Assembly: GCA_051362555.1 (NCBI GenBank)
Contig: CM120640.1
Span: 21,514,001-21,578,000, forward strand
Direction: 5' to 3'
Length of the DNA stretch: 64,000 bases
Source: Lingula anatina
Taxonomy: Eukaryota; Animalia; Brachiopoda
Below the pieces are notes generated by a model. That model made no database searches. It had not been told where the DNA came from and worked only from the letters and a program-made list of their open reading frames with translations. Numbering within the stretch: position 1 is the first letter of the stretch; each line of letters opens with the position of its first letter. Both the position numbers and the translations under genes were made by a program. Below, piece by piece: positions 10,755-55,386 of this stretch.

Positions 10755-12746
10755 TTAATGAATGTCAGGAGGTAAGCCAGAAAGGTACGGGCGTGAATAG
10801 GCAGTAATTTCTTCCTCTGAACCCGAAGCTTCTGATGCTGGGACACTGTCACCAGGAATTCTTTCATATATTCGAATCATTCCCCTACGTCTGAGCCAAA
10901 TCAAAACTACAATGACGAAAAAGATAACGAACATAACCGTCCCTCCGATGATGAACCAGTTAATGTTCTTCTCCCAAATGTTTGGGTCTGGGATGTAATC
11001 GCAGACGACATTCGTGCCCATTTTGGGACAACAGGCACCAGCCTGCGATGGATCTTTCAGGTTTGGAAACATACACGGTTCGGTATAAGGGTTAAAGCTA
11101 CAACATGGGGTCTTTCTTACCACGTGAGAATCAGCTGGATCGAGCATCAAACACCCGGATTCCAAGCGCGTACAGTTGTTCGGCCTTGATCTCTGTGAAT
11201 CACAAAGTTCGGCGTTCTCATCGGAGTTGTCTCCACAGTGGTTATGTCCGTCACACACAGTGGACGAATCAACGTAGACACCGTTGTTACACCTAAGCAC
11301 CGTCTCGACATCCGTAACGCTACCGTTTCCAGTGTGATACAAATTCATAATAATGCGGAAACCTACGGCGTCCAGCTTAACACTTCTTAAACGCAGATAA
11401 AGAGCCACAGAATCATCCGGTGGAGAAAGGAAAATAGAAGTGTTAGGCGTGGTATTGGACGCGTCAAACTTCCCAAGAAACATGCTGCCGTTATCCCCAG
11501 ATCGATAAGCAATTAGTGTCATAAAGCTGTCTTGGCTCCATTCATCGTATACCGGATCTGAAAACAAGTGAGGGTTACGTATTGTCTTATTGCCAAAGTC
11601 AAATTCTTCAAAGTGTATATGAAGTTTGCTTCCGTTTAGAGGAATAAGCCATACACAGTCGTATATTTCATCCGAGGATATGCCGTTTATACTGATCGTC
11701 AACGAGTGTTCAAAATCCAACATCGACGTTGCCTGTCCACAGTTAGTTATGGTTGGGAGTACGTAGTTTGTTGAACTTTTATAATCGCCTGGCAAAAACA
11801 GGTAGGAAAACCTGAAATAGTTGTAAAATGCGTTGAACATCTTTTTGTTGTACTCGTCTGTAAATGTCATCTTTATCTGATTACTGCTGGATATGACGAC
11901 GCTGGAATGTTTGTAAAGCGGCGAAAGGGAAGAGCCGCTCTTGCCATCGGTGATTTCAATGTACTTTACCGTATCTGGTATCAGTACAGCCACGTGGCCA
12001 TTACGGTTCTTGTTCGTAATGGAGAGGACACAGGACGTTTTTTGCGTGTCCCACACCGGATTAAACCACGATAGTCGACCCATTGGCACACGGTCTTCAT
12101 TAGAACCAGGGATGATTTGATTCTCTGCTAAGTACCGGTTGCCGAAACGGTCCCACTTTGGGAAACAAGCGCCAACATAGTTTTCCTGATGCCAAGCTTT
12201 AGCTTTACATATCTTATATCTATCAAAAAGTATATTCGTCTCGGGGAAAATCGGGACGTAGAAATTGTCATCACCTTTACCTTTCTCAACTCTCCAGTTG
12301 CACAAGTGACTCGTATCTTGTAACATCACAAAATCACATTCGTATTCGAATACACATGATTGACTTTCCTTGGTGATGTTCTTAATAGCTACCCATCCGT
12401 ACATGTAGCTTCTCGCCATTTCGTCCTGGTCGCTTGCTATAAATGTGTACTTACAGCCACTGACCAATTCTCTGCTGTCCGTGTGGTTCTTCCCCTGACC
12501 ACACGTGGACTTATTCTCCGGCCTGTTGTCGGCATCGGTTGTTATTACCACCATCTCCATCGCCGTGGCATTTGGGGTTTGCTGATTCCTGGCGCGTGGA
12601 GAGCCCTCTCTGGAGATGTCTTCCTGGTTGAATACGACAACCTTCGTAAGATCGTCCTTGGCGTCCTCGCGTAGTAATATGCTGCATGTTCCAACGCTAA
12701 AGCTGTACAGGACAGCAAGGAAGGTCAAAAACAGCGTCATCATCAT
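10755..12746 (-). CDS. Single-pass type-I membrane protein with CUB-like domains and an LDL-receptor class A repeat (~663 aa, intronless CDS)
   Basis: Uninterrupted ORF. First ATG is 12746; the track start at 12755 is TTG. Signal peptide MMMTLFLTFLAVLYSFSVGTCS. CUB-like segments (CVLSIT...YIEITDG...SSSNQIKMTF; DCVWLI...LHIHFEEFDF...LYLRLRS...GFRI). LDLa CNNGVYVDSSTVCDGHNHCGDNSDENAELC. Cys-rich linker, TM WFIIGGTVMFVIFFVIVVLIWL followed by RRR, short tail with YERI. Splice acceptor tttctag|G at 12790 just upstream. Confidence 0.85.
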   Translation of the reverse strand: MMMTLFLTFLAVLYSFSVGTCSILLREDAKDDLTKVVVFNQEDISREGSPRARNQQTPNATAMEMVVITTDADNRPENKSTCGQGKNHTDSRELVSGCKYTFIASDQDEMARSYMYGWVAIKNITKESQSCVFEYECDFVMLQDTSHLCNWRVEKGKGDDNFYVPIFPETNILFDRYKICKAKAWHQENYVGACFPKWDRFGNRYLAENQIIPGSNEDRVPMGRLSWFNPVWDTQKTSCVLSITNKNRNGHVAVLIPDTVKYIEITDGKSGSSLSPLYKHSSVVISSSNQIKMTFTDEYNKKMFNAFYNYFRFSYLFLPGDYKSSTNYVLPTITNCGQATSMLDFEHSLTISINGISSDEIYDCVWLIPLNGSKLHIHFEEFDFGNKTIRNPHLFSDPVYDEWSQDSFMTLIAYRSGDNGSMFLGKFDASNTTPNTSIFLSPPDDSVALYLRLRSVKLDAVGFRIIMNLYHTGNGSVTDVETVLRCNNGVYVDSSTVCDGHNHCGDNSDENAELCDSQRSRPNNCTRLESGCLMLDPADSHVVRKTPCCSFNPYTEPCMFPNLKDPSQAGACCPKMGTNVVCDYIPDPNIWEKNINWFIIGGTVMFVIFFVIVVLIWLRRRGMIRIYERIPGDSVPASEASGSEEEITAYSRPYLSGLPPDIH

Positions 12747-13935
12747 GCTATACAAATGCTTTCCTACACCGTGTTTTGAAACATTGACCCCTAGAAAATG
12801 ATGGTTGTAGGTTAATGTTACATATCAAAAAGCAATACAGAAATTCCTTTGAATAGTTTTTGAATTTAGCCGACGAAATTAACCAATCATAACGAAAAAC
12901 TGATAAATTACGTCGAAAACGCATTTATAAACATCAACTACAATTGATAAAAAGTTACCGAGCTTTCGGCTTGTGTACCCGTCTCCAGGGACTAAAATAA
13001 GAATAATACACAAACTCTTTAGTCCCTGAAGAAAGCACACAAGCCAAAAGCTCGGGCACATTTTATCTTTCATAGCTGATCTTTATATGATGCGTTTTCA
13101 ATGTAATTTATTTATTTCTTATACAAGATCAACACGGTGATTACGATGAATCCTCATCGAAAAACTTACTGGGATGCATTGCGTTCATTCAGTAGAATGC
13201 TGCCTGACACGCTAAATACAACTGAAGACAAACGAGTTGTGAACTATGTTGAAATTAGGTTCAAAGTAAAATGCTGCGTTTTAAAGGAACACAAAGAGCC
13301 TACAATGAAAATAAAGAAATGGTTGACTGCACGGGCAGGCCAGGTAACGATATTTACGTTTTGTAGGTCATTCAAGTAAACCGGATACCCTTACTTACGT
13401 AAGGTGAGTAACACGCGGAACGCATTCATCCCCGGTTAGCGCCCCCATGTTAATGGGCTAGCACTACGAACTATTGTTGTGCCTTACAAATGCGTTAAAG
13501 TCTTATTAAAACTTATGTGCATTTATCTCATGGTTGATGCCAAGCAGTGAGGTTGCGTGAAAATATTAATGCAATGATATCACATTTTTTACTGTTTCTC
13601 CAGGGAAATAATTAATAAAATTTGCAGCCTTCAACAACTCAAATTTACATCATTTGGTCTTACAATGTTTGAACTAATGATTACATTGTTCCTCAGCCAT
13701 TCTGGTATCTACTATGTAAAAGTGTTGCGCAAATATTTTACTTATTGGCAACTACATTATTTTTCTTCTTCAAAAATTAACGATAATTTTTTTAACAGGA
13801 ACGGCATCCAATTAGTGTAAAAAAACATACTTTTTCCCACCCGCACCTTCAAGCCAATACTAATTTTCATAATCCGTTGAATATATATTCCCTAGATTTT
13901 ACCTGTAGTGCTTAACACACGTATATCTTACTTAC

Positions 13936-14035: not shown

Positions 14036-15433
14036 ACCAGGGGTCGAGTTACGAAAGTCGTCCCAGTGAGGCGACCCGTCGCTAGAGGTCGGACAACCTT
14101 TTGGTTTTAGTATGTACTGTATTTATCAACTATGCTAAATAATGATGAATTATTTATTCCAAAATTTCGTGCACGAGTTGCTTTGTGGTGTTGTTACTAC
14201 TTTTGAAGGGATGCTAGTATGAATTCTTAGAAATAAACCTCTAGCTGTTTTGTTTAACGCTCCAATGGTCCGATTGTATAATCGCTGGAAATGTATGTTT
14301 GAAAAAAAAAGGACAAGTATTCGCGTGCCCATAGAAAGGCCGTTATCAGGACAATGCCCCCCCCCCGGATAATCCCCCCCCCCCTCGGGACAATTGCCAC
14401 CTGTAATGAATGAAAATAGATGCGGTAATGAACAATGTGATATGGAAAAATATAAATACCTGCCATTAATCATATTGTATCTCTAGGTATTTGGGTAAAC
14501 AATCTCCATGTATCCCTTTGATGAACTGACACTCTGAATTGTTTACCCCCCCCTCCCCGTCCCCTTGGTCACGTTGCCTGCCTTTTATCAAGGTGTGTCA
14601 CCAGGTAAAGGTGGGGAAAATCTCACTCATCAAGGAAAATCCCTTTGATGAACTTGCTGTCTGTTTAAATTGTTTCTCCACAACCCCATAGCATACATAT
14701 TTTCTTTTCCTTTTTTATTTTTATTCTGAAAACTCACTAAAATCAAATGAAATGCAGATAAAATAGCATTTGTTTGCTTATAGAAAAATGGTAAAATGAC
14801 AGTGTTTGTTTGATTAAAAATGACATATAATTTCATAATGGCAAATTTCATATTTCATTTTTGTCTCCTTTATTATCTTAGTAAAATATTCAAGAGATGT
14901 ATAAATGCTTTAGTTTAAATATATAATTCAAAAGCAGAGTATTTTCTTTCCTGGGAAGGGAGGTTGTATTTGGGGGGGGGGGGGGGGGGTTGTCCTAGGA
15001 CCCCAAGATTCAGTGGTTATAACCGCGTAGAAATCTTGAGTCTATTTTCGAGTTGATAATAGAACGTTTGACCTGTAGGTTCTTAACAAATTGGGCTAAT
15101 CGAAATGGCGTCGAAAAGTAGAGTGATAAGTTAAATTTATCTATCAATCAAAAAATATTAAATAAGAAATAAAAAGGCTTTCCAACTGGTAGCCAACTGT
15201 TAATTGTATCTGTTTGGGAGAAACATCTACAGTCTACATCATACAATGAACAAATATCAACCACATCTAGGGCAGAGTAGTACGGTATAAGTCTAACACC
15301 TTAAAATAGTTGAGAAGCTTTTATTATCCTTTTTGTTCTAAATGTATACAATAATTGAGAGGCTGTCATGCTCAACAACTTGATGCAATATTAGTAGTCC
15401 AATGTATTCCGTGGAAGGTACTCGCGTACACAT

Positions 15434-18116
15434 TTAGTAGCAGGTCTTTTCACAAATATAGAACTTCTTCAACGAGCAATCGTCGTCGTTCCAACCATAC
15501 CGGACTGTGTTAATGGTAGGGTGCATCCCACGCTTTAATGCCAGGCAGTGCTCATTTCTGTGGACGTTGTTAGGTTGACCCCACAGCCAATCGAAAGTGG
15601 TGATCGTTGTGCCTCCAAGATTTCCTTAAAAACAAACATGCATGTTTTAGGTTTAGGCAAGGAGTTATAACTCCTTGGTTTAGGTAATCGTAGAGGTTTA
15701 AACAGGGATAAATATCTATTTACGTTATTTAAATTGACAACAAGACTATTACAAATGAAATATTTTTTCATTTTATTTGTTTGATGGTGAAATTCAAATG
15801 TCAAGGTTTTCACAGAAATAAATAACCATTAACGATATTCATGCCGAGAAACAACTGTAACTGCAAGGTCTATATCATTTGCACATCTGATGCAATATTT
15901 AATAAGTGTAACAAGTCGTTAAATGATTATTCTGGTCAACACTCCAGCCTCGACCAGTCTATTCTACTCTCTACCAGGTTCACAAATTGATTTTTCACAA
16001 GATATTCACAAATATGTCTTAAGGTAAATAGACGGTCATTTTACTATCTCTGGCTTTTGGTTATTATCCCTATAATATCTGCCGCCCTGGTAGAAGGTAA
16101 GTCTACTCAGAAAGACTGGTATAAGTACGTTTATTTGCAAACTATTTTTGGTGGATATTATACCGTGGATGAGGTTCACGAGACGTGAATATTAAACTTT
16201 TACAAGTTGTAAGAAAAAAGGCATCAATATTGGTGAGTAAAAGATTGGGAATTGCCATTTGATTATATACTGTATAATTTTTAGAGAGATATTGTAGAAG
16301 AAAAATGTATGTGTTATGTGTATATTTATTCTTATCACTTGCAGACAGCGATGTTTGCCGCTCCGTTATTATTTTACCACCTATATTAATCTGCTCACGG
16401 TAGCCTTATGTAGGCCTACACATATGAATATATTAAGCACATGTTGACACGATTATAAGAATCTTATTATTGTCTTTTAGTCACATAGAATTCCAAAAAG
16501 ACATCCTATTAAGTGTTGTAACTATTGTTTTATTGATACTGTGGTTACAACATATAAAATGTATAGTGAAGACTATTGAGAATTTGATACCGTTGTAATG
16601 TGCAGATGATTTAAGTACAGTGCTGACTTAAAAGATTTCAATATTTTCTTCTTAATTTTTCCATATTCCTGTAAATTCCTGGTGGCAATAAAACAGAACC
16701 TGTAAATAACTTGTGCCTTTGTTTCTACGTTATTATAGGCCTAACCCCTGCGCGTTTTAGTTACGATTGGAATTTAAATCTCAACACCAACTCACGTACA
16801 CTCTGACCACAGGACCCGCTAGTAGTCTGTTACAATATTATTGCATCGGCCTGTACTTAAATTCTGTATACTTTTTTAGAGACCCCTGATATCAGAGAGC
16901 ACAACTCACCTTTGTGAGCCCACTTCCAGAGGTAATCTCTAGCGATGTCATTACCAGCGATCCAAAAGTCCGGGTAATCTTTTACCCGATGAGTATCCGT
17001 GAAGAAGCCTTAAAATAAAATTGATGTATCTTTAAGTCCAGTCAATACCATGCATGAAAATTGCAATTGAATTGGTCATAAACTTACTTTTTATCATTTG
17101 TAATTCATACTGAATTAATTTGATTTTCAATTCATTTGAATTTCCTTTAGCCAACCCGGATATAGACCTATTTTAATATTTAAAAACATCAGTACACAAT
17201 GATTTTTAGAACATCTTACTTTGGCGTTGGGTAACATAATTCTCGACCCAGTTCTCTTCAGAGGTGTCTTCAATCACAGCTAGTTTCGCTCCGATGGCTC
17301 TACAGTATTCCTGAAACGGTCATTAACACATTCAGGTGATTCGTTCAGAGGTAGGCTATAACCCACGAAAAGGTCTTTGTTCAGCTAAAGAGTTCATCCC
17401 AACTATCAGCCATCAGTCCACGTGGATCGATCCAACTCCCCGGGGACACTTGCTGAATGCAGCCTCCTGGCGTTAAGTATAGAATGCACGAAAACTGGTA
17501 ATCATACGAGTATGTTGGAAACAAGAGAAGGCGAGTTTATCTCTTAAACTAACTGCATTCATCGAGAGTCTTCGCGGAGTTGGATCAATCACGTGTCAAT
17601 GGAAATGAGCCCAGTGACTATTTAAGAAAACATTTGTGAGATTGAGGCAAATCAATAAGGTCGATAGCCACCACTCATTACTTTCAAACTCGTACTCCAT
17701 AAAGAGAACTTTTCCATACCAATTTTTGTTCGCGTGGTATAAGACGAATGATTGAATGTCCTGGTGATATTAGAGCGGGGTTGTGATGAAATTAAACAAA
17801 AAAATGTAAAGTCCCTCTAAGAAAGTAACGAGATAATAATGTTATTACCCTTGTGAAGGAGGTTATGTATTCACCTCCGTATGTCCGTTAAAAAATCATG
17901 AAGTGCCCTTTTTATCTGGAAAAGCATTGTATAATCTCCAATACATGTTTTGACTTGCTTTAGTGATCAGATGCAAACTTTTAAAAAGTACAATTACAAA
18001 AAGGTTAAAGGACATTCAAACTTCTTAACTCACATTCGCCTCTGCCCAGCTGGCCACATCTCGTACGAACTTGTAACAAGACCAAGAATTCCTTGAAACG
18101 AAACCAGGAGGGCATT
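15434..18116 (-). CDS. Exons 3-6 of the M4-CTLD gene: C-type lectin domain (QPN and WND motifs)
   Basis: Four small GT-AG exons missed by the ORF track. Joined in frame they give a long-form CTLD with the conserved Cys, a WIG-like FWIAG, QPN and WND. Confidence 0.88.
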
Positions 18117-20356
18117 CTGCAAAGCAAGCATATAGTTAACACTGCTGAACAGAGTTTTTTTTCGTAGCAAATGTATTCCTTGTTACAGTTTGAAAATTCT
18201 TTACCCGGAAAATTGTGCACAAAACTGTACTCACTGCAAAATACCCCGACCTGTGCGAAAGCATCAGCCACATCTTGGGTATTGTGGCCAAGGTCCCATG
18301 CCGCTTGAATCACCCCACATGAGCCAGAGTTAAAGTTGCTGTTACTGACCCAGTATAGTCTGTTGGCTCTCGCAAACACTCCAAATGCAATCTTGGTGGT
18401 CCAGCCGGGTGTCGTAGCTAAGATGTAAAATGCCTTGTTATAAATGCCACTGGAGTAATGGACACCCTGACCTTGGTAATAGCGAGCACATTGGATAGAA
18501 GGAGGAGCAATAGGCGGGTGCATCATGTATCGTAACGCGTCTCCATTCTTCATGATGTCATGCCCGAGACGCCAGTCGTTATGCCCCCGGAGATAGTACT
18601 TAAACGCCTCGCCTGCTATATCTGAGAAGGCTTCGTTCATCCCACCGGACTGCCCAGCGTAAATAAGGCCTGAGGTTGCTTCCGTGTAGGCGTGGCCAAG
18701 CTCGTGGGACACCACATCGGCCACAGCCAAGGGATAAAATGTTGTAAACCCGTCGCCATATGTGGTACACATGCCATTCCAGAAAGCATTCTGGTAGTTG
18801 ACGCCGTAATGGGCTCGGATACGCATGGCACCGTAGTTGGTTGGCAGTGTAAAGTCACTGAACCAGTCGCGGTACATATCGTACACAGCTTTGGTGAAGT
18901 AGAAGGAGTCATGTAAAGGAGAGTAAGCACCATTGATGGCGTCCACGATGCCCGTCGCGCACAGAGCCGTTGCCACGGGACCAGAGGCGCAGCTGCAAGC
19001 CCAACTATTACCACAGTTGGTGACCCTTGCATCGGCATTGAAGTAGAAGCAAGTTGCACTGAACTGAAACACGTCCAGCGGTCTTCCTGCCCATCGCAGT
19101 TCTCCGTACTTCCACTGTCCAGTCTTGACATTTCCACCAGGTACACCTGTCATGGAGTAGAAACCAATGGATTCCCAGTGCTTCAAAATGGTTCCATCTA
19201 AAGCGTCGATGAAGTAAAAAGGGCGAGAGGGTTCCGTTGAATTTTCGACATTATAATTAAGATACCAGGCAAGTCTGACCTTGCCACCTTCATCCATGTA
19301 GATCTGCAGTGATGCATCACGCTTGGGTTCAAAGACGATGAGAGATGTATTCTGTTGTTTTTCATTGTTAATAGCAATTTTCAGTGCTTCTTCAACGGTT
19401 AACTCTGGTATAAAGGACTCAAGATCTTGTTCGATGCCTTCAGCGATGGTGCCATAAACAAACTGCCGGAAACCCCCAGTTGCCATAACTTTTTTACTTC
19501 TCTTGTCATAGTCCTTCACTTCAACTTTTTCCAATACCACGTTTTGTCCAAAAACTGGGATGTTTTTGAATGTTTCCACATACTTGATTTTCACTGCAAC
19601 TGGCCCTTTCTTTCTCCTATCGTCTGAATTCGGCACTTTCTCGCGATGTATCTCTAACAGAGCATAATCGTTGCTTGGCAGCCGTAATAGTTGTTCTGGC
19701 CACACGTCACAGGGAGGGTCGGGGCATGATTCGATAACCCTCTTCTGTAACTCTTCTCTATCCACTATTTCGATGGCGCTCACTGTCAAACCTAAAAGGA
19801 CTAAACGAGAATTGGAAATCATAAGTTAAATGAACGAACATCCAATAATTACGTAAATAGATATCTTAAGGTAAGCATCAATGGCTTATAAGCCTATTCA
19901 ACAGATATGTAAATTATTTAAAATTTAAAAAGTATGTTTTTCCGTTTTTTAAACATTGCATAAGTGATAGTGTGACGAAGTTATTGGCTTGTCTTCTTCA
20001 TGTTACGCGAGGTAGCAAATACAACTCAGATATTATCTTTCTTATTATTTATTGAACTACTGTCCAGTTATTACCCGCGCCGCTTCCTTCATTTCTATTC
20101 CTACCTCATGCAATCTCTAGCGGCCTTCTCTTCGTTTACACTAAGCGCAGTTGTATAAATACCATAAGAGCATGTCAATCAACTTAAGTTACTCTACTAA
20201 ACACTCCCCGCTCTTATTCACTGCATGCTGTCACTTACTAACGTTACAATAGATACAATACGAGTCCAGCTAGCCGTGGTTTAAATTCTTTTGTTGCCGT
20301 ATTCTGACCAAATCTAACTTACCAAACAGCACGGAAATCTCCAAACCTCTAAACAT
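15434..20356 (-). CDS. Secreted M4 (thermolysin/pseudolysin/vibriolysin family) zinc metalloprotease fused to a C-terminal C-type lectin domain; 6 coding exons, ~684 aa
   Basis: Exons 20356-20323, 19791-18235, 18116-18034, 17310-17220, 17008-16910, 15624-15434. All introns GT-AG, phases consistent (1,1,0,1,1), total 2055 nt ending TAA. Signal peptide MFRGLEISVLFGLTVSA. FTP/PepSY-like propeptide (YVETFKNIPVFG; RPFYFIDALDGTILKHW). Mature M4 domain (PGGNVKTG, NAFWNG, HELGH, GGMNEAFSD, GVHYSSGIYNKAFY). CTLD CPPGF..CYKF..SWAEANEYCRAIGAKLAVIED..FWIAGND..WKW..WLWGQPNN..EHC..WNDDDCSLKKFYICEK. AATAAA at 15325-15320. Confidence 0.92.
18235..19791 (-). CDS. Exon 2 of the M4-CTLD gene: whole propeptide plus M4 catalytic domain in one 1557-nt exon
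   Basis: Acceptor tccttttag|GT at 19791; donor TGCA|gtgagt at 18235. The sequence closely follows Pseudomonas LasB / Vibrio vibriolysin as I recall them (HExxH, SGLIYxGQSGGMNEAFSD, GW.T..AF.VF..ANR.YW, AF..VGV.C). Confidence 0.92.
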
Positions 20357-20542
20357 TGTGATAGAGCCGACTTCACACGCAAATGTCAATGGTCAAGACT
20401 CTCTTGAAAATTAAATGAAATAATTACATAAGTTTGTCATTGATGCATGTAACTTAAAGTCGTTACTAGAGGATAATGCATTGACTTCCGTTACTTGCTC
20501 ATGCTTAACACGTTATTGTTATAGTTTTTAGCGTTCACTTAC

Positions 20543-20622
20543 ATATAGTCTGTCGTAGTTTGGTGTCTTCACCTCCAACGATGATGGAGTAACTTAAAGG
20601 CGGACCGTTGCTCCTTTTTATA
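20543..20622 (-). promoter_or_regulatory. TATA box and probable non-coding first exon of the M4-CTLD gene
   Basis: Minus-strand TATAAAAA at 20622-20615. Donor AT|GTAAGTG at 20543/20542. Candidate acceptor ttttcaag near 20403, upstream of ATG 20356. Confidence 0.55.
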
Positions 20623-20758
20623 CTTGTCAATGAAGAAGTGTTATTATAATTGAAAAATTCCTTACGAAGAAAAGGTGTGACAAAATCTGATAATTATTGT
20701 CATATTTGATTGATATCTTTCCTTAAGAATGATACACAAGGAACTTATATTGACTAAC

Positions 20759-21558
20759 CAATGAATTTCTTGTGAAGAAAATAAGTTCCTTATCTATCGG
20801 GGTGTTTGACAATAGCGTTGCGGACCATGACAATAATCAAAGACCACAAAGAAGTCCCATAAAAGATCTTTTCAAGACGGATGCGAAACGTTTTATAATT
20901 TTTTTCATCGACGTTGCGTTATTTTGTTTACATGGCATATGTAAACGGCTGCCAAATTAATATTTTTTTCTTTTTAGAGGAACCTACATCTGAGTAAGCG
21001 CACAATAGAGAGCATATCTATATGCGAGTGCGCACAGAATGAACTCTGTATACTAGCGATTGGTTGATAAAGCTAAATATACATGTTGCGGGCTGCAGGT
21101 CATTGTGACATTTTATTGGATTAATATGTCATCTTTACAATTGTTTTATTTTCAATGAATTTCTTGTGAAGAAAATAATTTCCCTATCTATCCGGGTGTT
21201 TGACAATAGCGTTGCGGACCATGACAATAATCAAAGACCACAAAGAAGCCCCATATTAGATTTTTTCAAGACGGATGCGAAACGTTGTATAATTTTTTTT
21301 ATCGACGTTGCTTTATTTTGTTTACATGGCATAGGCCTATATAAACGGCTGCCAAATTAATATTTTTTTTTCTTTTTAGATGAACTTACATTTGAGTAAA
21401 CGCACAAACGAGAGCATGTCTATATACATGCGAGTGCGCACGGAATGAACTCTATCTGTATACTATCGATTGGTTGATAAAGCTAAATATACAAGTTGCG
21501 GGCTTTAGGTCATTGTGACATTTAGTTGGATTAGTAGGTCGTCATTACAATTGTTTTT
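20759..21558. repeat. Tandem duplication, 2 x ~395 bp
   Basis: Copies start caatgaatttcttgtgaagaaaataa at 20759 and 21153 and align throughout with scattered differences. This also explains the twin ORFs at 20772 and 21166. Confidence 0.92.
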
Positions 21559-23488: not shown

Positions 23489-36590
<13,102 letters not shown>

Positions 36591-47692: not shown

Positions 47693-50600
47693 TTAAAGGC
47701 AAGTTTTGGAAAATGACATACAGACTGGAAAATGATCACCAAAATAAGTAGGTAAAACTGTTATTTTAAGATCTGCATGATCAAAGTTTGTAAAGACAAG
47801 ATCTAAGGCTGAGTCATAAATGGTAGTTGGAGTTTTGACACACTGCTTAAACAGAAGGTCATGGCACATCATTTTTCTGAGGGCATTTGCATTGTTTTCA
47901 TGGAGCCAGTTGACATTAAAGTCACCTACAATAATGCATTTGTTTGCCTTATATAATTATCAATAGCCCCAATAGTATTCTTCAATGTCTCAAGGAGAAC
48001 TTGCATTTTACCATGAGGAGGACGGTAAATTGTGATGATGACAAAGTCAAGAAATTGTTCCAATCATGTGACAGTAATCTCAATGCCAGAGGAATTGTAA
48101 TTTTTTGGAAAATTCTTTGCAGTACCATGCTGTCTATAGAGAGAACTATCATTTCGGTGTAGATATTTACCTTTTACTTGGAATTTAGCATTTAAGTCTT
48201 AAGTAGCAAATCTGGTTTCTGTGCAAGCACATACATGTATATCTGCTTTCTCTACATCGTAACGCTTTCTAATATCTTCTATATATTTATGAAGAGAACA
48301 GCAATTCCAATGGATTATTTTGAAGTGGTCATCTGGTTGTTCGTATAGAAATGAAACAGATTTTACAAGCTGTGCTTCTTGTCTTAAACGTTTCATTTCT
48401 TGTTTTACTTTTTCAGAAATGCATATTTTACCGGCATTTAATTCCAAAATATGCAACCCTTCTAATTTTTCTACATGACTTAGTGCAACATAATGCATGT
48501 GTTCATTTTTTCTACCACTGAGATCTACAACTAATTCTTTCAATGTGTCACCTTGGCATCTGTGTATTGTCTTTGCAGCAGACAACTGTAGTGGAAACTG
48601 TTTTCTTATGACTTGATATTGTCCTGTTCTTTCCAGGTGAAATTGTCTGGAAAGATAGGTGTCCATGTTTTCGTAATGTTGCTACTATATAATGGTTTGT
48701 TCATTCTTCTGGCATTTTTGGCAATGTCCTCTGAGTCAAATTATACCCAAATTATTTGTCTGTCTAAATCTACCAGTTTAACAACACTTGGTGCACCATT
48801 AGTAATGCCATCTTCTGTGTCAACATTTAGGACAATTTCTGTCCTTTATCCAACTGCAATATGCAATATCCTTTGTAAATTCATGGTCTTTTTATGATCA
48901 AATGGAAATTGCTTTCTGATGTTGTTTTCTAAATGCTTTGGTACAGACCCAGTGATTGTATCAGTGGCTGCAATTTGAAATTTTTCTCCTTACGAAATTT
49001 GATAACTGGTATGATTGAAATGTTCAACCAGTGCATTTGTTTGGAAAACGTGTAGTAATGGTTGGTGGTAAGTTTTTGATTTATCAAGCTGACGTTCACT
49101 GATAATTTTTATATCTTTGTCGGTATGATTTCCTTCTCTAAGCCTATTTAAAATTTCTGCAAACTCTTTACTGTCTTTTTGACGCATAATCTGGGTCAGT
49201 TCATACATGTAAAAATGTTTCTGCCACAAATAAGTAGCTAATGGACAATAGTCATTGTCAGGATTTTCAAATATCCAGTTATCAAACACAGGCTTCAGTT
49301 GAAATAGGTCACCTATAGCCACAATGCTAACACCTCCAAACAGTCTGTCATTGTTTTTCAGTTCTTTTAGTCTTTCATTGATGAAACTTAACATTTTACT
49401 CCCAACCATTGAAACTTCATCAATAAAGAGAACTTTAAGTGATCCAAGTTTACATCTGAAACTATTTAGCACATCAGGACCAAGTCTTCTGTATTTGAAA
49501 CTTTGATTTGCTGGAATTTTCAGTAAACTGTGAATTGTGTGGCCACCAATATTATAAGCAGCTTTTCCTGTAGGAGCAACTAAAGCAACTCTAATTGTCC
49601 GAAAGTCCTCACCAGGTAAACTTGACATATACTTCAAAATGCCCTGATATAGAGCACGGGTGACAAATGATTTCCACACAACAGCACCTCCAGACAGGAA
49701 TATGTGAAACGGATCAGAATTGGACTTGACTAAATGCAAAACATGATGGAAAAACTCCAACTGTTGTTTGTTCATGTTTCTAATCATTTGAAAGTAATTA
49801 CTGTCAGATATCTCTTTATTGACAATTCCTTCTTCAGTGCAACTTTTGGCAGATACATGTATACCCAAATATTCTGCTAAATCATAAGACAGACCAACAG
49901 AAGACTGCACAACATTACTAGGTTCACACTGATCAGCTTTATTTTGATTCTGGGTATTTGGTGCAACAGTGGCCCACATATCTTCATCCTCACTATCCAC
50001 ATTATTAAGATTTCTCCAAAGGCATGCCATCTGTATCTAATAATCTAGAAGATTTTTTCTTGCTTCCACCCTTAACATTCAAATTGTTGTCATAATATGC
50101 GGCAAAATCTGCAAGGGAAACATTGTCTGAAGAAGGAAAGCGTTTGCTGTAATGTTTCAAGAGATTGCTGGACTCAATATTGTCAGATTCATCTTCCAAT
50201 TCTTTTATTTCTTCCAGTGGCTTAAGCAATCGTACTCTGTCTTCAGGGGTTGTAGTGTTAATGAATACAAATGATCGAGATGCTCTTCTCATGGGTAATT
50301 GTAAAGTGATGTACTAGTAGGCAGCTTCTTGAGCACAAATTTCAACATTGTTAAGAAATTTGTTTCCAACGTGACGGACTTACGGACTTGCTGTTTTATG
50401 TTACTGTTACCTTCTCTAGCTTCTTTGCAAGCTTGACAAAGTAAATCAGACATGACTCTGTCCTTTGGAAATGTAATTTACGATATATGTTGCACAAGCA
50501 TATATGTCTAAAACAAACTGAATATCCATATTTGCTCTCCATGCTTGTAAACATGACCTGGAATAATTGTTTATCCAAATTTCACTTGGGAGTCCTTTTA

Positions 50601-53600
50601 GGAACAATGTATCAGTCTTGATTGTAGATCTCACTGCCAAGATATAATCTTTTTCTGAGACTTGTACTTTATCTAAAAATTCTTCAAATGTGAGACTAAT
50701 ACCTGTGAAATCTTTGTCATTTATAATATTATGAATTAGTTTTCAAATCTTTGCATATTCTTTCTTCTGTGAAGCATCATCAAGGGGTGTCAAAATTACA
50801 CTTTGTTTCATTGGAGACTGAGGAAAATGGAATCTACAAGATTTTTTCAAATTTTTTATATATGTCCTTGTATGTTTGTGTGTCTGATAAGATGCAAGTT
50901 CTTTTAATGGATCATCTTCATTTGGACTGCTACAGCAAATTGTGTTATCAACAAATTGTATAATATCTTCATTAGAATTGACACCGTATATAGGTGCATT
51001 TTCTATCCAAAGAAGCATGTGAATATGTGGACTAACTCTATGTTGAAATTCTACACGGTAAAAAAAATCTTGTATTTTACCTAATGGTGCTACCTTGTGG
51101 CAGAGAAAATGATGTATCAAACACTGCACTTGATAATCAAAATGTCGTGCACAAGTAATAGGATCACTCTGAATCAAGCAACATATCTTTCATCCCAGCT
51201 GAGTTGTTCTAGCTCTGCATCTGAATAATCTTTATTATCTACCAATTTACCCAGAGTTCTGAGTAAATGATTCCATTTTGTTTCAGCAGAAGAAAAACTG
51301 CAAAAAAAGGTTGCTGATCCTAGCTGAAGTATCATTGCAAATAGATCTTTCTTTGCTTTCTCAATTTATGGGGGGAACCACGAACTCCTCTTAAGAATGT
51401 ATAACCTTCGTAAGAGTTTCTCAGTGGCTCCAGACTGTTTAAAATCTCCTGCAGTGAGTTTCTTTCCATTTGTTTTATGTTTTCTTACAGCAAGAGCCGC
51501 TGACCCAATCAATCTTTTCATCTGCAATTTTTTTGCCTTAAAAAATATGTTGTCAACACACATTGATGCTCTTCTGTCATTGCGTCTTAATTCAGACTTG
51601 CAGATGTCACTGTAGTGTACAGGAACAAGTCTGCTTTTATTTGCAGGCTGTGCATTGCCAAGATATATTTCTGGAAAAGCCAGTTCTTCACAGTGTTCAT
51701 CTCTAAATATGCTGAGTGGCTGACCTTCTTGACCAGGTGCAAAAGAGTAAATTTTCTCTCTCTCTGTGTCTTCCAAGAAGTCTCTGCCTGTTAACATTGT
51801 ATCTCTTATACCAGGCTTCATTTCTTTGTCATCAATTTCATCCCAGTCTTCAGTATCATTGGACTGCAAGTATTTACCTCTATCTGAATTAGCCTGTGTC
51901 ATCTCCTTCCTTTGCAGCAAGTTCTTGTTTATGATATTAGCAGGTAATGATAAGTCGCATACATTTTGCACTACGTCATAGTGATCAGAATTAGTGTTTT
52001 GCAGGTAAATGGCCTTCTCAATCTCATGTGAATGATTTTTCTGATCAAGAAACTTGGCTGAATACTTCTACCATTTCCAAGAGTTGCTGCTTGCAGTAGA
52101 CATAGATGTCAGTTTGTAGTAAATGTGCTGCAGCAGGTATTTATGTTTCAGTACCCCAAACATTTACATTATTCATGGCTGTTCTTCTTACATAAGTTGC
52201 TGATGTCCTGTCATTATCGCCTAAAGTATTACTTGCAAAAGCATACTCAAGCTGCTTCATATGACTGAGGATTCTGTTTCTAAGTATAACAACGTGTCAC
52301 AACCAGTAATGGCAAAAGACAAACCTTGAAAAAAACAATTTCCATCTCCAATAATTTTTTTCAACTTGCTAGGTTTTGTCAAGAGAATATTACAACTAGT
52401 TTCAGGCAAATTGTGTGGACGCTTTAATTGTAAATTTAATTTGTCAGTCATTTTCTCTTGCCACAGGGCAACTACAGGCATAAAATGAAATAAAGTATTG
52501 TCAGTCCGTAGATGTTGTATCTCATTTTCAGATTCACAAAATTCAGGTAATAAATGTCGTTGCTGTATGTATGATAACTCTTTTTGCAAGTTTGAAACAT
52601 ATCTTACTCTGTGTCGAATTTTCTTAACAGTCTTGAAGTATCTTGAGTACCATGTTTTTCCTTGTTTTTTTTTCTTTTGAACAAGCCATAATAACTCAGT
52701 TTCAAATGCTTGTATTTTCTTAGTACATGGTGGTGCTTATAAGCCATGAATTTTTCAATTCCTACTGTACTTGGAACTCTGATTCTATTTGTCTTCATGC
52801 AATATCTTGATCTGCCTCTGGTTTGTGATTTGAATGCAGTTACTTCTAAAACATGAGGGTGTAGTGGAGAACCAGTAATTTTTCTTTCACTTTGAATAGT
52901 AGCCACAAATTTGTCAACATCAACAGATGGGTCATGTTTATAAGGCTTGTCTAAAATTACATAGAATTCATCTGCAAAATCACCATCCTGATCCATAAAT
53001 TGTCCTTCTTCAGAAAATTGGATATTTCCACAATCAGAAGGGCACTCAACACAAACAGATTCTTTCAATAATAGGTTTTGTACTTGTTCCTCATTCAAAT
53101 TATTCACACTTGCCCTTTTTCCATTTGTTTAAATGTGATAGAGCTGCAGGGATTATATATCTTCTAATTTCCATGTTGGGTCTACAGTTATTCCTTTTTC
53201 TTGAAACAATTTCCCATTAGCAGTTAACCAATTTGCTGCTTCAAGGTCTTTGTTAGGCCTTACATTCTGAGCATAGGCATAACTCTTAAATTTCACATTT
53301 CTTTTCAGTTGAACTTAAATTGTTGAACTGTCGGTGTCAGTTCTTGGTAATTTTGTTACAGTGGATGTTACATCTGCTGGTATGTTTACAACATTCCCTT
53401 CTAATTATTTTGTATTGTTTTCCACATGGAGCTTGATGAAGTTTCATGAAAACTAACCTTGCATGGGCTAGTTAATCTCCACTCTAAAGTTTTAAATCCA
53501 AGAAACTGGATTTTTCTGTAAATGACGTGCAATTTACAATAGCACATGGAGGTATTTTGTTCTTTTTCAAGTGAGAAGCGCATGTTAAACACATCCAATT

Positions 53601-55386
53601 ACTGTTGAATAAATCATCAACTTCTTTGCATTGATTAACTGCTTTATTCTCTATATTCAAAATAGGCTCTCTATTTATGACAGTATGTCTGTACCAGAGT
53701 TGTTGACATATAAAGCATGTGTAAGTACAACCTTCAGTAACCTTTTTGTGGAACTGTTGTATCAATTCTTGAAGAGTAGTATTGGTTTTCTGTCTCTTAT
53801 TACGCTTAGCAACTGTATCAGTCTTCCTTTCACATATTCTGAAATTGGGATCAGAACCTTTTTTGGTATTTCTCAGTAACGTTATAATCAGGATTAGATC
53901 TTTTCAACTGTTTGTGCTTTAGAATATTGTTCTTCACGTCAGACTGAGAACGTTTTAGTCTCTGATTTTCTTGTTCAGTTTTCCTGTACTGAGGATCAGA
54001 TCTTTTTAACCTTTTTTGGTTTTTCTCAGTAACTTTGTAACCAGGATCAGACCTTTTCAACTGCTTGTGCTTTAGAATATTTGCTTTCACATGGGACTGA
54101 GAACGTCTCTGGGCTTCTTGTTCGGTTTCCCTGTACTGAGGATCAGACCTTTTCAACTGCTTCTGCTTTAGAATAATACTCTTCACAGCTAACTGAGAAT
54201 GTTTTAGCCTCTGGTTTTCTTGTTCAGTTTTCCTGTACTGAGGATCAGATCTTTTTAACCTTTTTTGTTTTTTTCTGAGTAACTTTGTAATCAGGATGAG
54301 ACCTTTTCAACTGCTTGTGCTTTAGAATATTGGACTTTACATCAGACTGAGAACGCTTTAGTCTCTGAGATTCTTGTTCAGTTTTCCTGTATTTTAGATC
54401 AGATCTAAGAAGTTGCATTCTAATTTTATTCTTCTCTCTTTTCAAAACATTTCTGTCAGTGCCACTGGTTTCCATTAATGAACTATCCAAGAGAGTTTTA
54501 TTCACTGTGTTAATTTTGCTTTATTGTTTGTCTTCTGCCCATTTTAACTGCTTCTTCATTTCATCATGTAATATTTTCATATGGGGTTTGTGCAAATTTG
54601 TTTTATCAAAAATGGAAGAGATGGAATCAGAAGTAATGGGATTACCAGTGTATTTTGTCAATGTTGCTTTTCTGTACTGAAATGTACTGGCAACCTTGTC
54701 CATTAAACCGGTTTTTAAATTTATCTTAATCTTGTAGCAAGTTTTCTGACATGAACATTCTTTTCCAAAGGTTTAAGCGATGATGTTAATGTTACTATTT
54801 GAGGATCATTTTTTAGAATTTCAGAAGAAACTGATTGTTGTGATTTTTCTTTAATTTTTGGGGTACTGTTGAGAGCTTTGGGTTAACTGGCATTTTTGAC
54901 TTTACAAGTAAGGCTGACATATCTGATTATGTATGATCTGAATATTTCATAGACTTAATTGAAGGATCTGCAGCATCAGTGGCACTCAAACTGATGGGCA
55001 TTTCAGGATAATCTGTGTCAACTGTAGCATCTGTCTCAACTGTAGCATCTTAATGAGCTCCATAAACAGTATCATCTGAATCAATAGTAATCTCAGTAAA
55101 CTCTGTCAACTCAGTAAAATCTGTCAACTCAGTAAACTCTGTCAACTCAGTTCCCACCGAGGTGGGCGTGGCTACCGAAGTAGCCACAGACAACACAGTT
55201 CCCACAGAGGTGGGCATGGCTACCGAAGTAGCCACAAGCAACTCAGTTCCCACTGAGGTGGGTGTGGCTGCTGAAGCAGACACAGTAGGAGGCCTGTTTG
55301 CCTCAGCCACCCTCTGTTGACTTTCTTTGTTCTTTTTCTTCTGCAGTGCCCTTTTTGTAGCCAAACTGTTTTTTCAAGCTAGGCAT
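47693..55386 (-). mobile_element. Decayed Helentron/Helitron2 Rep-helicase polyprotein gene (many frameshifts and stops)
   Basis: Order N to C: Thr/Ser-rich repeats (55050-55364); K/R/Q-rich repeats RSDPQYRETEQENQRLKRSQSDVKNNILKHKQLK (53851-54420); CxxC motifs CFICQQLW and CLTCASHL; GNVVNIPADV..KLPR..VRP segment typical of Helitron N-termini; OTU-like IGDGNCFF (~52330-52355); FAPGQ..EELAFP; Rep motifs TFFCSFS, VEFQHRVSPHIHMLLW (HUH), YIVNYISK; PIF1 motifs GGAVVWKS (degenerate Walker A), APTGKAA, IDEVSM, GDLFQLKPV, QIMRQ, RKQFPL..TIHRCQG, YVALS; C-terminal endonuclease WNCCSL, TET, IYRPP, GDFN, DLVF, GDH; stop at 47695-47693. Confidence 0.9.
53851..54400 (-). repeat. Coding tandem repeats in the Helentron N-terminus
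   Basis: Recurrent ttcctgtactgaggatcaga / ttttcaactgcttgtgctttagaatatt / actgagaacg blocks encoding RSDPQYR, RSQSDVK and LKHKQLK. Confidence 0.85.

Follow-up and report, generated by a model that had tools for sequence, protein, structure and literature searches.

The gene considered here, LOC106178470 of the brachiopod Lingula anatina, lies on the minus strand of a stretch of 64,000 nucleotides (assembly GCA_051362555.1, contig CM120640.1, positions 21,514,001 to 21,578,000), referred to as the window. Its product of 687 amino acids, annotated as 'uncharacterized' and returned as an identical protein by a search with the protease exon, combines a metalloprotease of family M4 with a C-type lectin. 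An earlier interpretation made from the sequence without database searches, the sequence-only reading, had divided the coding region from 20356 to 15434 into six exons. This division is confirmed: all ends are GT..AG, the cumulative phases are 1,1,0,1,1 and there is no internal stop. With the acceptor of the protease exon set at 19800, the model is a letter-for-letter match to the RefSeq protein XP_013417113.1. The Pfam domains M4, M4_C and Lectin_C are recorded on that entry, and the architecture is already in databases as an automatic prediction.

The ATG at 20356 is contained in an exon at 20323..20402, seen in both the gene model and the reads, which carries codons 1 to 11 of the predicted signal peptide and a phase-1 donor. 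The following exon (18235..19800; reads, with Pfam PF01447 and PF02868) is 1566 nucleotides long and intron-free, and encodes the end of the signal peptide, the propeptide and the entire M4 catalytic domain. Its acceptor at 19800 is used by 193 reads in X7, one of eight RNA runs (X1 to X5 and X7 to X9) used out of nine listed by species label, versus 31 for an alternative acceptor at 19791. The latter gives the 1557-nucleotide exon originally proposed, which was correct in its phase 1 and lack of introns but is the minor form; phase 1 is retained, and the signal peptide is weaker (best 8-residue hydropathy of 2.15 versus 3.29). The lectin is encoded by four exons, at 18034..18116 (long-form cysteines C535 and C547; junction reads in X7, X8 and X9), 17220..17310 (gene model, Pfam and reads) and 16910..17008 (WIAGND; gene model and reads), with the coding part of the last at 15434..15624 (QPN at 15569-15577, WND at 15485-15493 and the stop at 15434; gene model, Pfam and reads).

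The signal-peptide exon had been taken as the first, and the ATG exon stands, but a non-coding exon upstream of it was missed. This exon, with an approximate 5′ end, lies at 20543..20595 on the minus strand, where 142 loose-end reads at 20402 find their match and 8 joined reads are seen in X7; the intron between the two (20542-20403) is GT..AG. A TATAAAA box at 20616..20622 (minus strand) is situated about 20-30 nucleotides 5′ of the inferred transcription start, and X7 depth drops to 0.14 in the bin 20596-20802. Just 5′ of the box is a tandem duplication of about 400 bp (20759-21557), the copies being 88-94% alike. Downstream of the stop, the predicted AATAAA is likewise present (15320..15325, minus strand) as a candidate poly(A) signal, although the RNA reads contain no pile-up indicating its use.

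All five coding junctions are spanned by reads in three of the eight runs (X7, X8 and X9), with 193, 111, 98, 125 and 99 reads across introns 1 to 5 in X7. The junction joining the protease to the lectin (18235/18116), singled out earlier for a check by RNA, is crossed by 111 reads in X7, at least 36 in X8 and at least 87 in X9. The X7 reads for this junction form two rows of 49 and 62, one base apart, a shift that would be explained by a variant at the first base of lectin exon 1. Transcripts running on to a stop at 18005 had been raised as evidence against the fusion. Depth in the X7 bin containing intron 2 is 59, in agreement with the roughly 52-58 expected from exon bases alone; the intron itself has next to no depth, and such read-through is therefore negligible; the peptide it would encode has no Pfam match.

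Expression is sample-restricted. The three expressing runs belong to one study and have similar levels, while the five silent runs (X1, X2, X3, X4 and X5) come from two other studies and are near zero over the exons, with two lectin junctions in X2 covered by a single read apiece. Among the matches listed, junction reads of the M4-lectin gene and of a neighbouring dihydropyrimidine dehydrogenase gene stand at 278:69 in X8, 536:108 in X9, 0:21 in X3 and 0:1 in X5, and X3 is the sole useful negative control. Many fixed differences in the reads suggest that the sequenced population is distinct from that of the window. Between the two, the propeptide differs by a deletion of 3 nucleotides at 19608, the sole listed coding indel and in frame, and there is a likely variant at 18115-18116. 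The 33 coding variants listed comprise 16 synonymous and 17 non-synonymous changes and no stop; for these, the synonymous share (16/33) compares with 22-27% expected, giving a ratio of non-synonymous to synonymous polymorphism (pN/pS) of 0.29-0.40 (p 0.0006-0.008).

Every named top relative of the protease is bacterial, as would suit an artefact, either bacterial contamination or a mis-joined gene prediction. Against this, all junctions are crossed by oligo-dT reads whose source population shows many fixed differences, and the gene adjoins the spliced dihydropyrimidine dehydrogenase gene and a Helitron, its GC content at third codon positions (GC3) being 0.52 in the protease exon versus 0.50 in that neighbour. 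Such an artefact is extremely improbable and is refuted by the junction reads. GC3 of the lectin exons is 0.54. Integration into the host genome with introns and expression, as looked for in a transferred gene, is observed. A second copy is absent from the window and no Lingula paralogue appeared in the protein searches, the rest of the genome not being searched directly.

The protease part scores 77.2 bits for Peptidase_M4 (cut-off 22.4) and 120.4 bits for Peptidase_M4_C (cut-off 24.4). The closest solved structures by sequence are Pseudomonas pro-elastase (E 1.8e-89) and vibriolysin MCP-02. Alignment to the elastase places the zinc motif HELGH (H377, E378 and H381) at 18692..18706 and the third zinc ligand, E401 within NEAFSD, at 18632..18634, both on the minus strand; Y392, R435 and H459 are also retained, as are both disulfides through the cysteine pairs 262/292 and 506/533. 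A model of residues 79-534 is mostly confident. When its catalytic domain is compared by Foldseek with MCP-02 and LasB, the best match is 3nqx (E 5.8e-30, target template modelling (TM) score 0.87), and the structure matches ranked 1-7 have a root mean square deviation of 1.2-2.0 Å over 273-290 columns. The thermolysin-like two-lobe fold is present in the model. The zinc site and catalytic residues are intact, and the protease is predicted to be secreted and active.

The FTP and PepSY propeptide domains named by the sequence-only reading fared less evenly. FTP is undetected by Pfam in the Lingula protein and PepSY reaches 17.1 bits, below its cut-off of 24; the propeptide fold nevertheless matches that of MCP-02 (E 1.3e-7). 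Self-cleavage is predicted from the alignment to occur near residues 224-228. The vibriolysin/pseudolysin branch of M4 (MCP-02, LasB, HapA and E495), which is 45-48% identical to Lingula over the modelled mature domain, has the same layout of signal, propeptide and catalytic domain, the HExxH and NExxSD motifs, the Y/R/H helpers and the two disulfide pairs. The Lingula protein differs from this branch in being encoded by a spliced eukaryotic gene, in carrying a linker-free C-type lectin in place of the bacterial PPC domain and in five extra cysteines within the mature protease. One calcium-site glutamate of elastase is a lysine and the aspartate preceding the catalytic histidine is a glycine; the calcium-binding and histidine-backing roles of these residues are assumed here.

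The lectin part scores 50.8 bits for Lectin_C (cut-off 22.6). It has the canonical cysteines of the long form (C535, C547, C564, C651, C674 and C682) and a seventh, C686. The first lectin exon is joined, in phase 1, immediately after C533, the final cysteine of M4, so that the lectin starts one residue past it without a linker. The mature chain contains 16 cysteines, nine in the protease and seven in the lectin, and a disulfide between the domains is a speculative possibility. The Atlas model of the lectin has a TM score of 0.77 to lectin clusters, and AlphaFold confidence for the domain is low (predicted local distance difference test (pLDDT) <50, with a mean of 40.3 in a second model). Long-form C-type lectins such as mincle, DC-SIGN, mosGCTL-1 and the ladderlectin-like proteins share the six cysteines, WIxG, WND and the site-2 positions. 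Unlike them, the Lingula domain has QPN, H651 and C686, and is placed behind a protease. The early assignment of the two halves, a LasB/vibriolysin-type M4 enzyme and a long-form lectin with WND, is upheld by Pfam, alignment and fold.

The lectin occupies the place where most of the close relatives tested carry a PPC-like tail, in line with the replacement proposed earlier. A profile of bacterial PPC tails matches 17 of 23 tails at E <0.03 in the phylogenetic clade containing Lingula, six of them at <1e-6; the strong matches include the earliest branch (P0105 and P0175) and P0002 of Lingula's sister group. Neither Pfam nor the bacterial-tail profile detects PPC in the Lingula protein or in six frames of the window. 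By parsimony over the PPC-bearing tails, the ancestor of the clade had PPC, and the phase-1 intron is placed exactly where the tails of the relatives begin. In the bacterial M4 protease E495, PPC domains are reported to bind protein substrate and to increase catalytic efficiency (PMC3327674). Another protein, P0205, combines M4 with a Pro/Thr linker and a pair of ShK domains. Its inclusion in the clade makes the tree slightly better (+2.45; p = 0.57 in the approximately unbiased (AU) test), and it may belong to the same family with a different animal-type tail.

The named top relatives of the protease are 38-44% identical to it. P0002, a clade member, ranks first among the relatives in both large searches, with 394-395 bits versus at most 387 and 360. 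The clade itself contains no named bacterium and comprised 13 of 267 rows, then 32 of 383 and then 38 of 552 (FastTree 0.916). It was seen in five trees with differing sampling, and none of 80 GTDB and 83 metagenome-locus M4 domains falls inside the 38-member clade of the 552-row tree. In an IQ-TREE analysis of 62 selected rows, its 19 representatives have support of 99/97. The named members of the enclosing branch (94/98) are proteobacterial and include Vibrio, Aeromonas, Shewanella, Spartinivicinus and betaproteobacterial enzymes. The tree check advised at the outset places the protease among proteobacterial enzymes; the donor cannot be narrowed to the Gammaproteobacteria looked for there, because the nodes around the clade have support of only 88/73 and another placement is also compatible with the AU test.

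The other 37 clade members, including P0002, P0105, P0175, P0197, P0230, P0249 and P0283, derive either from records the size of transcripts or from long contigs that each hold several paralogues; several are paralogues on one long contig. In many of the long-contig open reading frames (ORFs) the beginning lacks a signal peptide, which would be expected if the signal lay on its own exon as in Lingula. Most members tested retain PPC-like tails, unlike Lingula, and none matches the lectin, spliced tails being invisible in contig-called ORFs. A furin-type R-x-K/R-R before the mature domain is found in 9 of 19 clade members versus 3 of 81 GTDB ORFs (search windows of 260 and 200 residues) and is absent in Lingula. 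EukProt gives one member the label Siedleckia nematoides, a gut parasite of polychaetes. A sequencing study of this organism reports host contaminants in its data (PMC6733595), which would bear on the record so labelled. The clade is probably an animal M4 family. The acquired bacterial protease of the sequence-only reading holds in its bacterial type and nested position, but the enzyme looks less like a capture by Lingula alone than like part of an older and probably animal family.

A separate transfer into the Lingula line, with long-branch attraction causing the grouping with other probably animal M4 proteins, is very unlikely. It would draw on the Lingula end branch, the longest in the clade (0.92), on identity to clade members (31-46%) no higher than that to bacteria (35-48%), and on the AU test, in which forcing Lingula with its myxobacterial and xanthomonad top matches is 28 log units worse with a p of 0.20. 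The recurrence of the clade in five differently sampled trees and the rank of P0002 in both large searches argue against it. An old transfer from a bacterium to an animal, followed by the exchange of PPC for a lectin in the Lingula line, is the favoured history from these comparisons.

Taken together, the locus is read, with somewhat more confidence than doubt, as an expressed Lingula gene in which a vibriolysin/LasB-type M4 protease of probable old bacterial descent, predicted to be secreted and active, is fused to a C-type lectin that likely replaces PPC and would hold the enzyme on glycosylated substrates. Structure, splicing, intact motifs and sample-restricted expression are direct observations; activity and origin we infer. 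An early animal relative would have gained the propeptide, M4 and PPC as one block, with a signal-peptide exon placed in front. In the Lingula line, a phase-1 intron after C533 would have brought in the four-exon lectin module and the PPC tail would have been lost. The zymogen may fold on its propeptide and cleave itself as LasB and vibriolysin do. Binding of calcium and sugar by the lectin would then make the enzyme more active locally towards glycoprotein food, mucus or microbes. It would most likely act at a surface of the gut or mucosa, and this target is the weakest step of the proposal.

Several points weigh against this reading. The AU result given above is one, and the bootstrap of the tree was unsettled (0.953), and a tree better by 2.45 log units came out of a constrained search. 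The limits of the clade were set once the first tree had been seen, the tree has no knowingly included fungal or protist M4 and it is rooted arbitrarily on three bacterial sequences. The animal reading is indirect, none of the other clade members being named as an animal. The intron-free protease exon is weak evidence of transfer, as the neighbouring LDLa gene is also a single ORF of 689 amino acids. The read variants classified, 33 in number, cover only part of those present. In the protein, the glycine in place of the histidine-backing aspartate has been mentioned; in the lectin, QPN is a hybrid that matches neither EPN nor QPD, and H651, next to E650, takes the place of a site-1 aspartate.

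The same lectin residues bear on a rival of identical origin, in which the ligand of the lectin-like domain is protein, mineral or matrix instead of sugar and the protease is anchored by it in the shell, egg coat or extracellular matrix for remodelling. The non-canonical QPN and the altered site-1 ligand would suit it, and expression in three runs of one study with almost none in five of two others fits a stage- or tissue-specific role. Lingula is also reported to shuffle domains in its shell matrix proteins (PMC4595640). When site 2 is aligned to mincle and mosGCTL-1, however, the EPN position reads QPN while E650 and WND are retained, and all five candidate residues (Q641, N643, E650, N670 and D671) are calcium-compatible. 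In addition, thermolysin, elastase, Peptidase_M4 and neutral protease have no match in the one supplement file of the paper on the genome and shell proteome of Lingula. A matrix anchor is unlikely. Returning to the glycan-directed protease, calcium and sugar binding through these five site-2 residues is plausible from the alignment, and its specificity is not predictable.

An immune effector, a one-chain pattern-recognition protease whose lectin recognises microbial glycans while the protease attacks the bound microbe or its toxins, is quite unlikely. Among solved structures, those nearest to the lectin part belong to pattern-recognition lectins (mosGCTL-1, mincle and DC-SIGN), with low scores that reflect what has been solved, and the levels across the three runs of one study are similar, which speaks against it.

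The combination of M4 and C-type lectin, which the sequence-only reading did not recognise, has no second example in the searches made. In a HMMER search of the whole protein against 1.84 billion representatives, none of the other 149 best matches aligns beyond residue 575; this scope is that of the top matches, below which a divergent M4-lectin protein could rank, and contig-called ORFs miss spliced tails. The lectin part has no match in 385 other fetched relatives nor in 80 gene-dense metagenome loci. A region search with residues 480-687 returned only the Lingula protein itself among 261 candidates, and is weak as it requires exact 5-residue words. Three M4 proteases (P0030, P0039 and P0098, one named Lysobacteraceae) carry PF01453, which we take to be a B-type lectin family, and M4 appears to be combined with a lectin module in bacteria as well.

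In the accessible literature, from which most subscription journals are missing, no description was found of this protein or of animal M4 proteases, and the supplements of two compendia of transferred genes (PMC13342648 and PMC12637581) may list the gene. The words horizontal, lectin, peptidase and protease give no match in the main text of the Lingula genome paper (PMC4595640). Family M4 is described as almost wholly bacterial (PMC7851659), and here an animal expresses an intact member. Astacins are likewise secreted zinc proteases with shuffled animal binding modules (CLEC, ShKT and CUB), C-type lectin being listed among them, but they are reported as native holozoan metzincins (PMC9848320), whereas the catalytic unit in Lingula is a bacterial-type M4. 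Since astacins carry C-type lectin and ShK modules, the design principle of a protease joined to a lectin is known. With both components familiar, and with proteases fused to lectins elsewhere, the gene is not a new kind of system.

What is new, on the sequence comparisons, is a clade without a named bacterium nested among proteobacterial vibriolysin-type enzymes, most tested members of which have PPC-like tails. It points to a wider, probably animal, M4 family without a description in the literature searched. The relatives allow the change of binding tail from bacterial PPC to animal lectin to be traced, and the gene is a testable case of a transferred gene rebuilt via exon shuffling. A broader proposal is tentative and somewhat doubtful: marine invertebrates would share an old undescribed vibriolysin-type family from a single bacterial transfer, in which PPC was swapped for native modules (C-type lectin in Lingula, ShK elsewhere), the Lingula protein being a single chain whose protease is guided by glycans, with a new specificity through QPN and a disulfide-tethered lectin.

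The gene sits between an LDLa-domain ORF and the dihydropyrimidine dehydrogenase gene. The former (10755-12824, minus strand) is intron-free and encodes 689 amino acids that begin like a signal peptide, contain an LDLa repeat and end with a hydrophobic segment near the C terminus, and looks like a single-pass receptor; a possible CUB-like region is not detected by Pfam. The dihydropyrimidine dehydrogenase gene, used above as the expression control, is multi-exon and extends from about 27700 to 35400 and beyond on the plus strand, with splicing seen in the reads. Farther along is a broken Helitron-like element (48200-54300, minus strand), fragmented into pieces of PIF1 helicase and Helitron_like_N in several frames.

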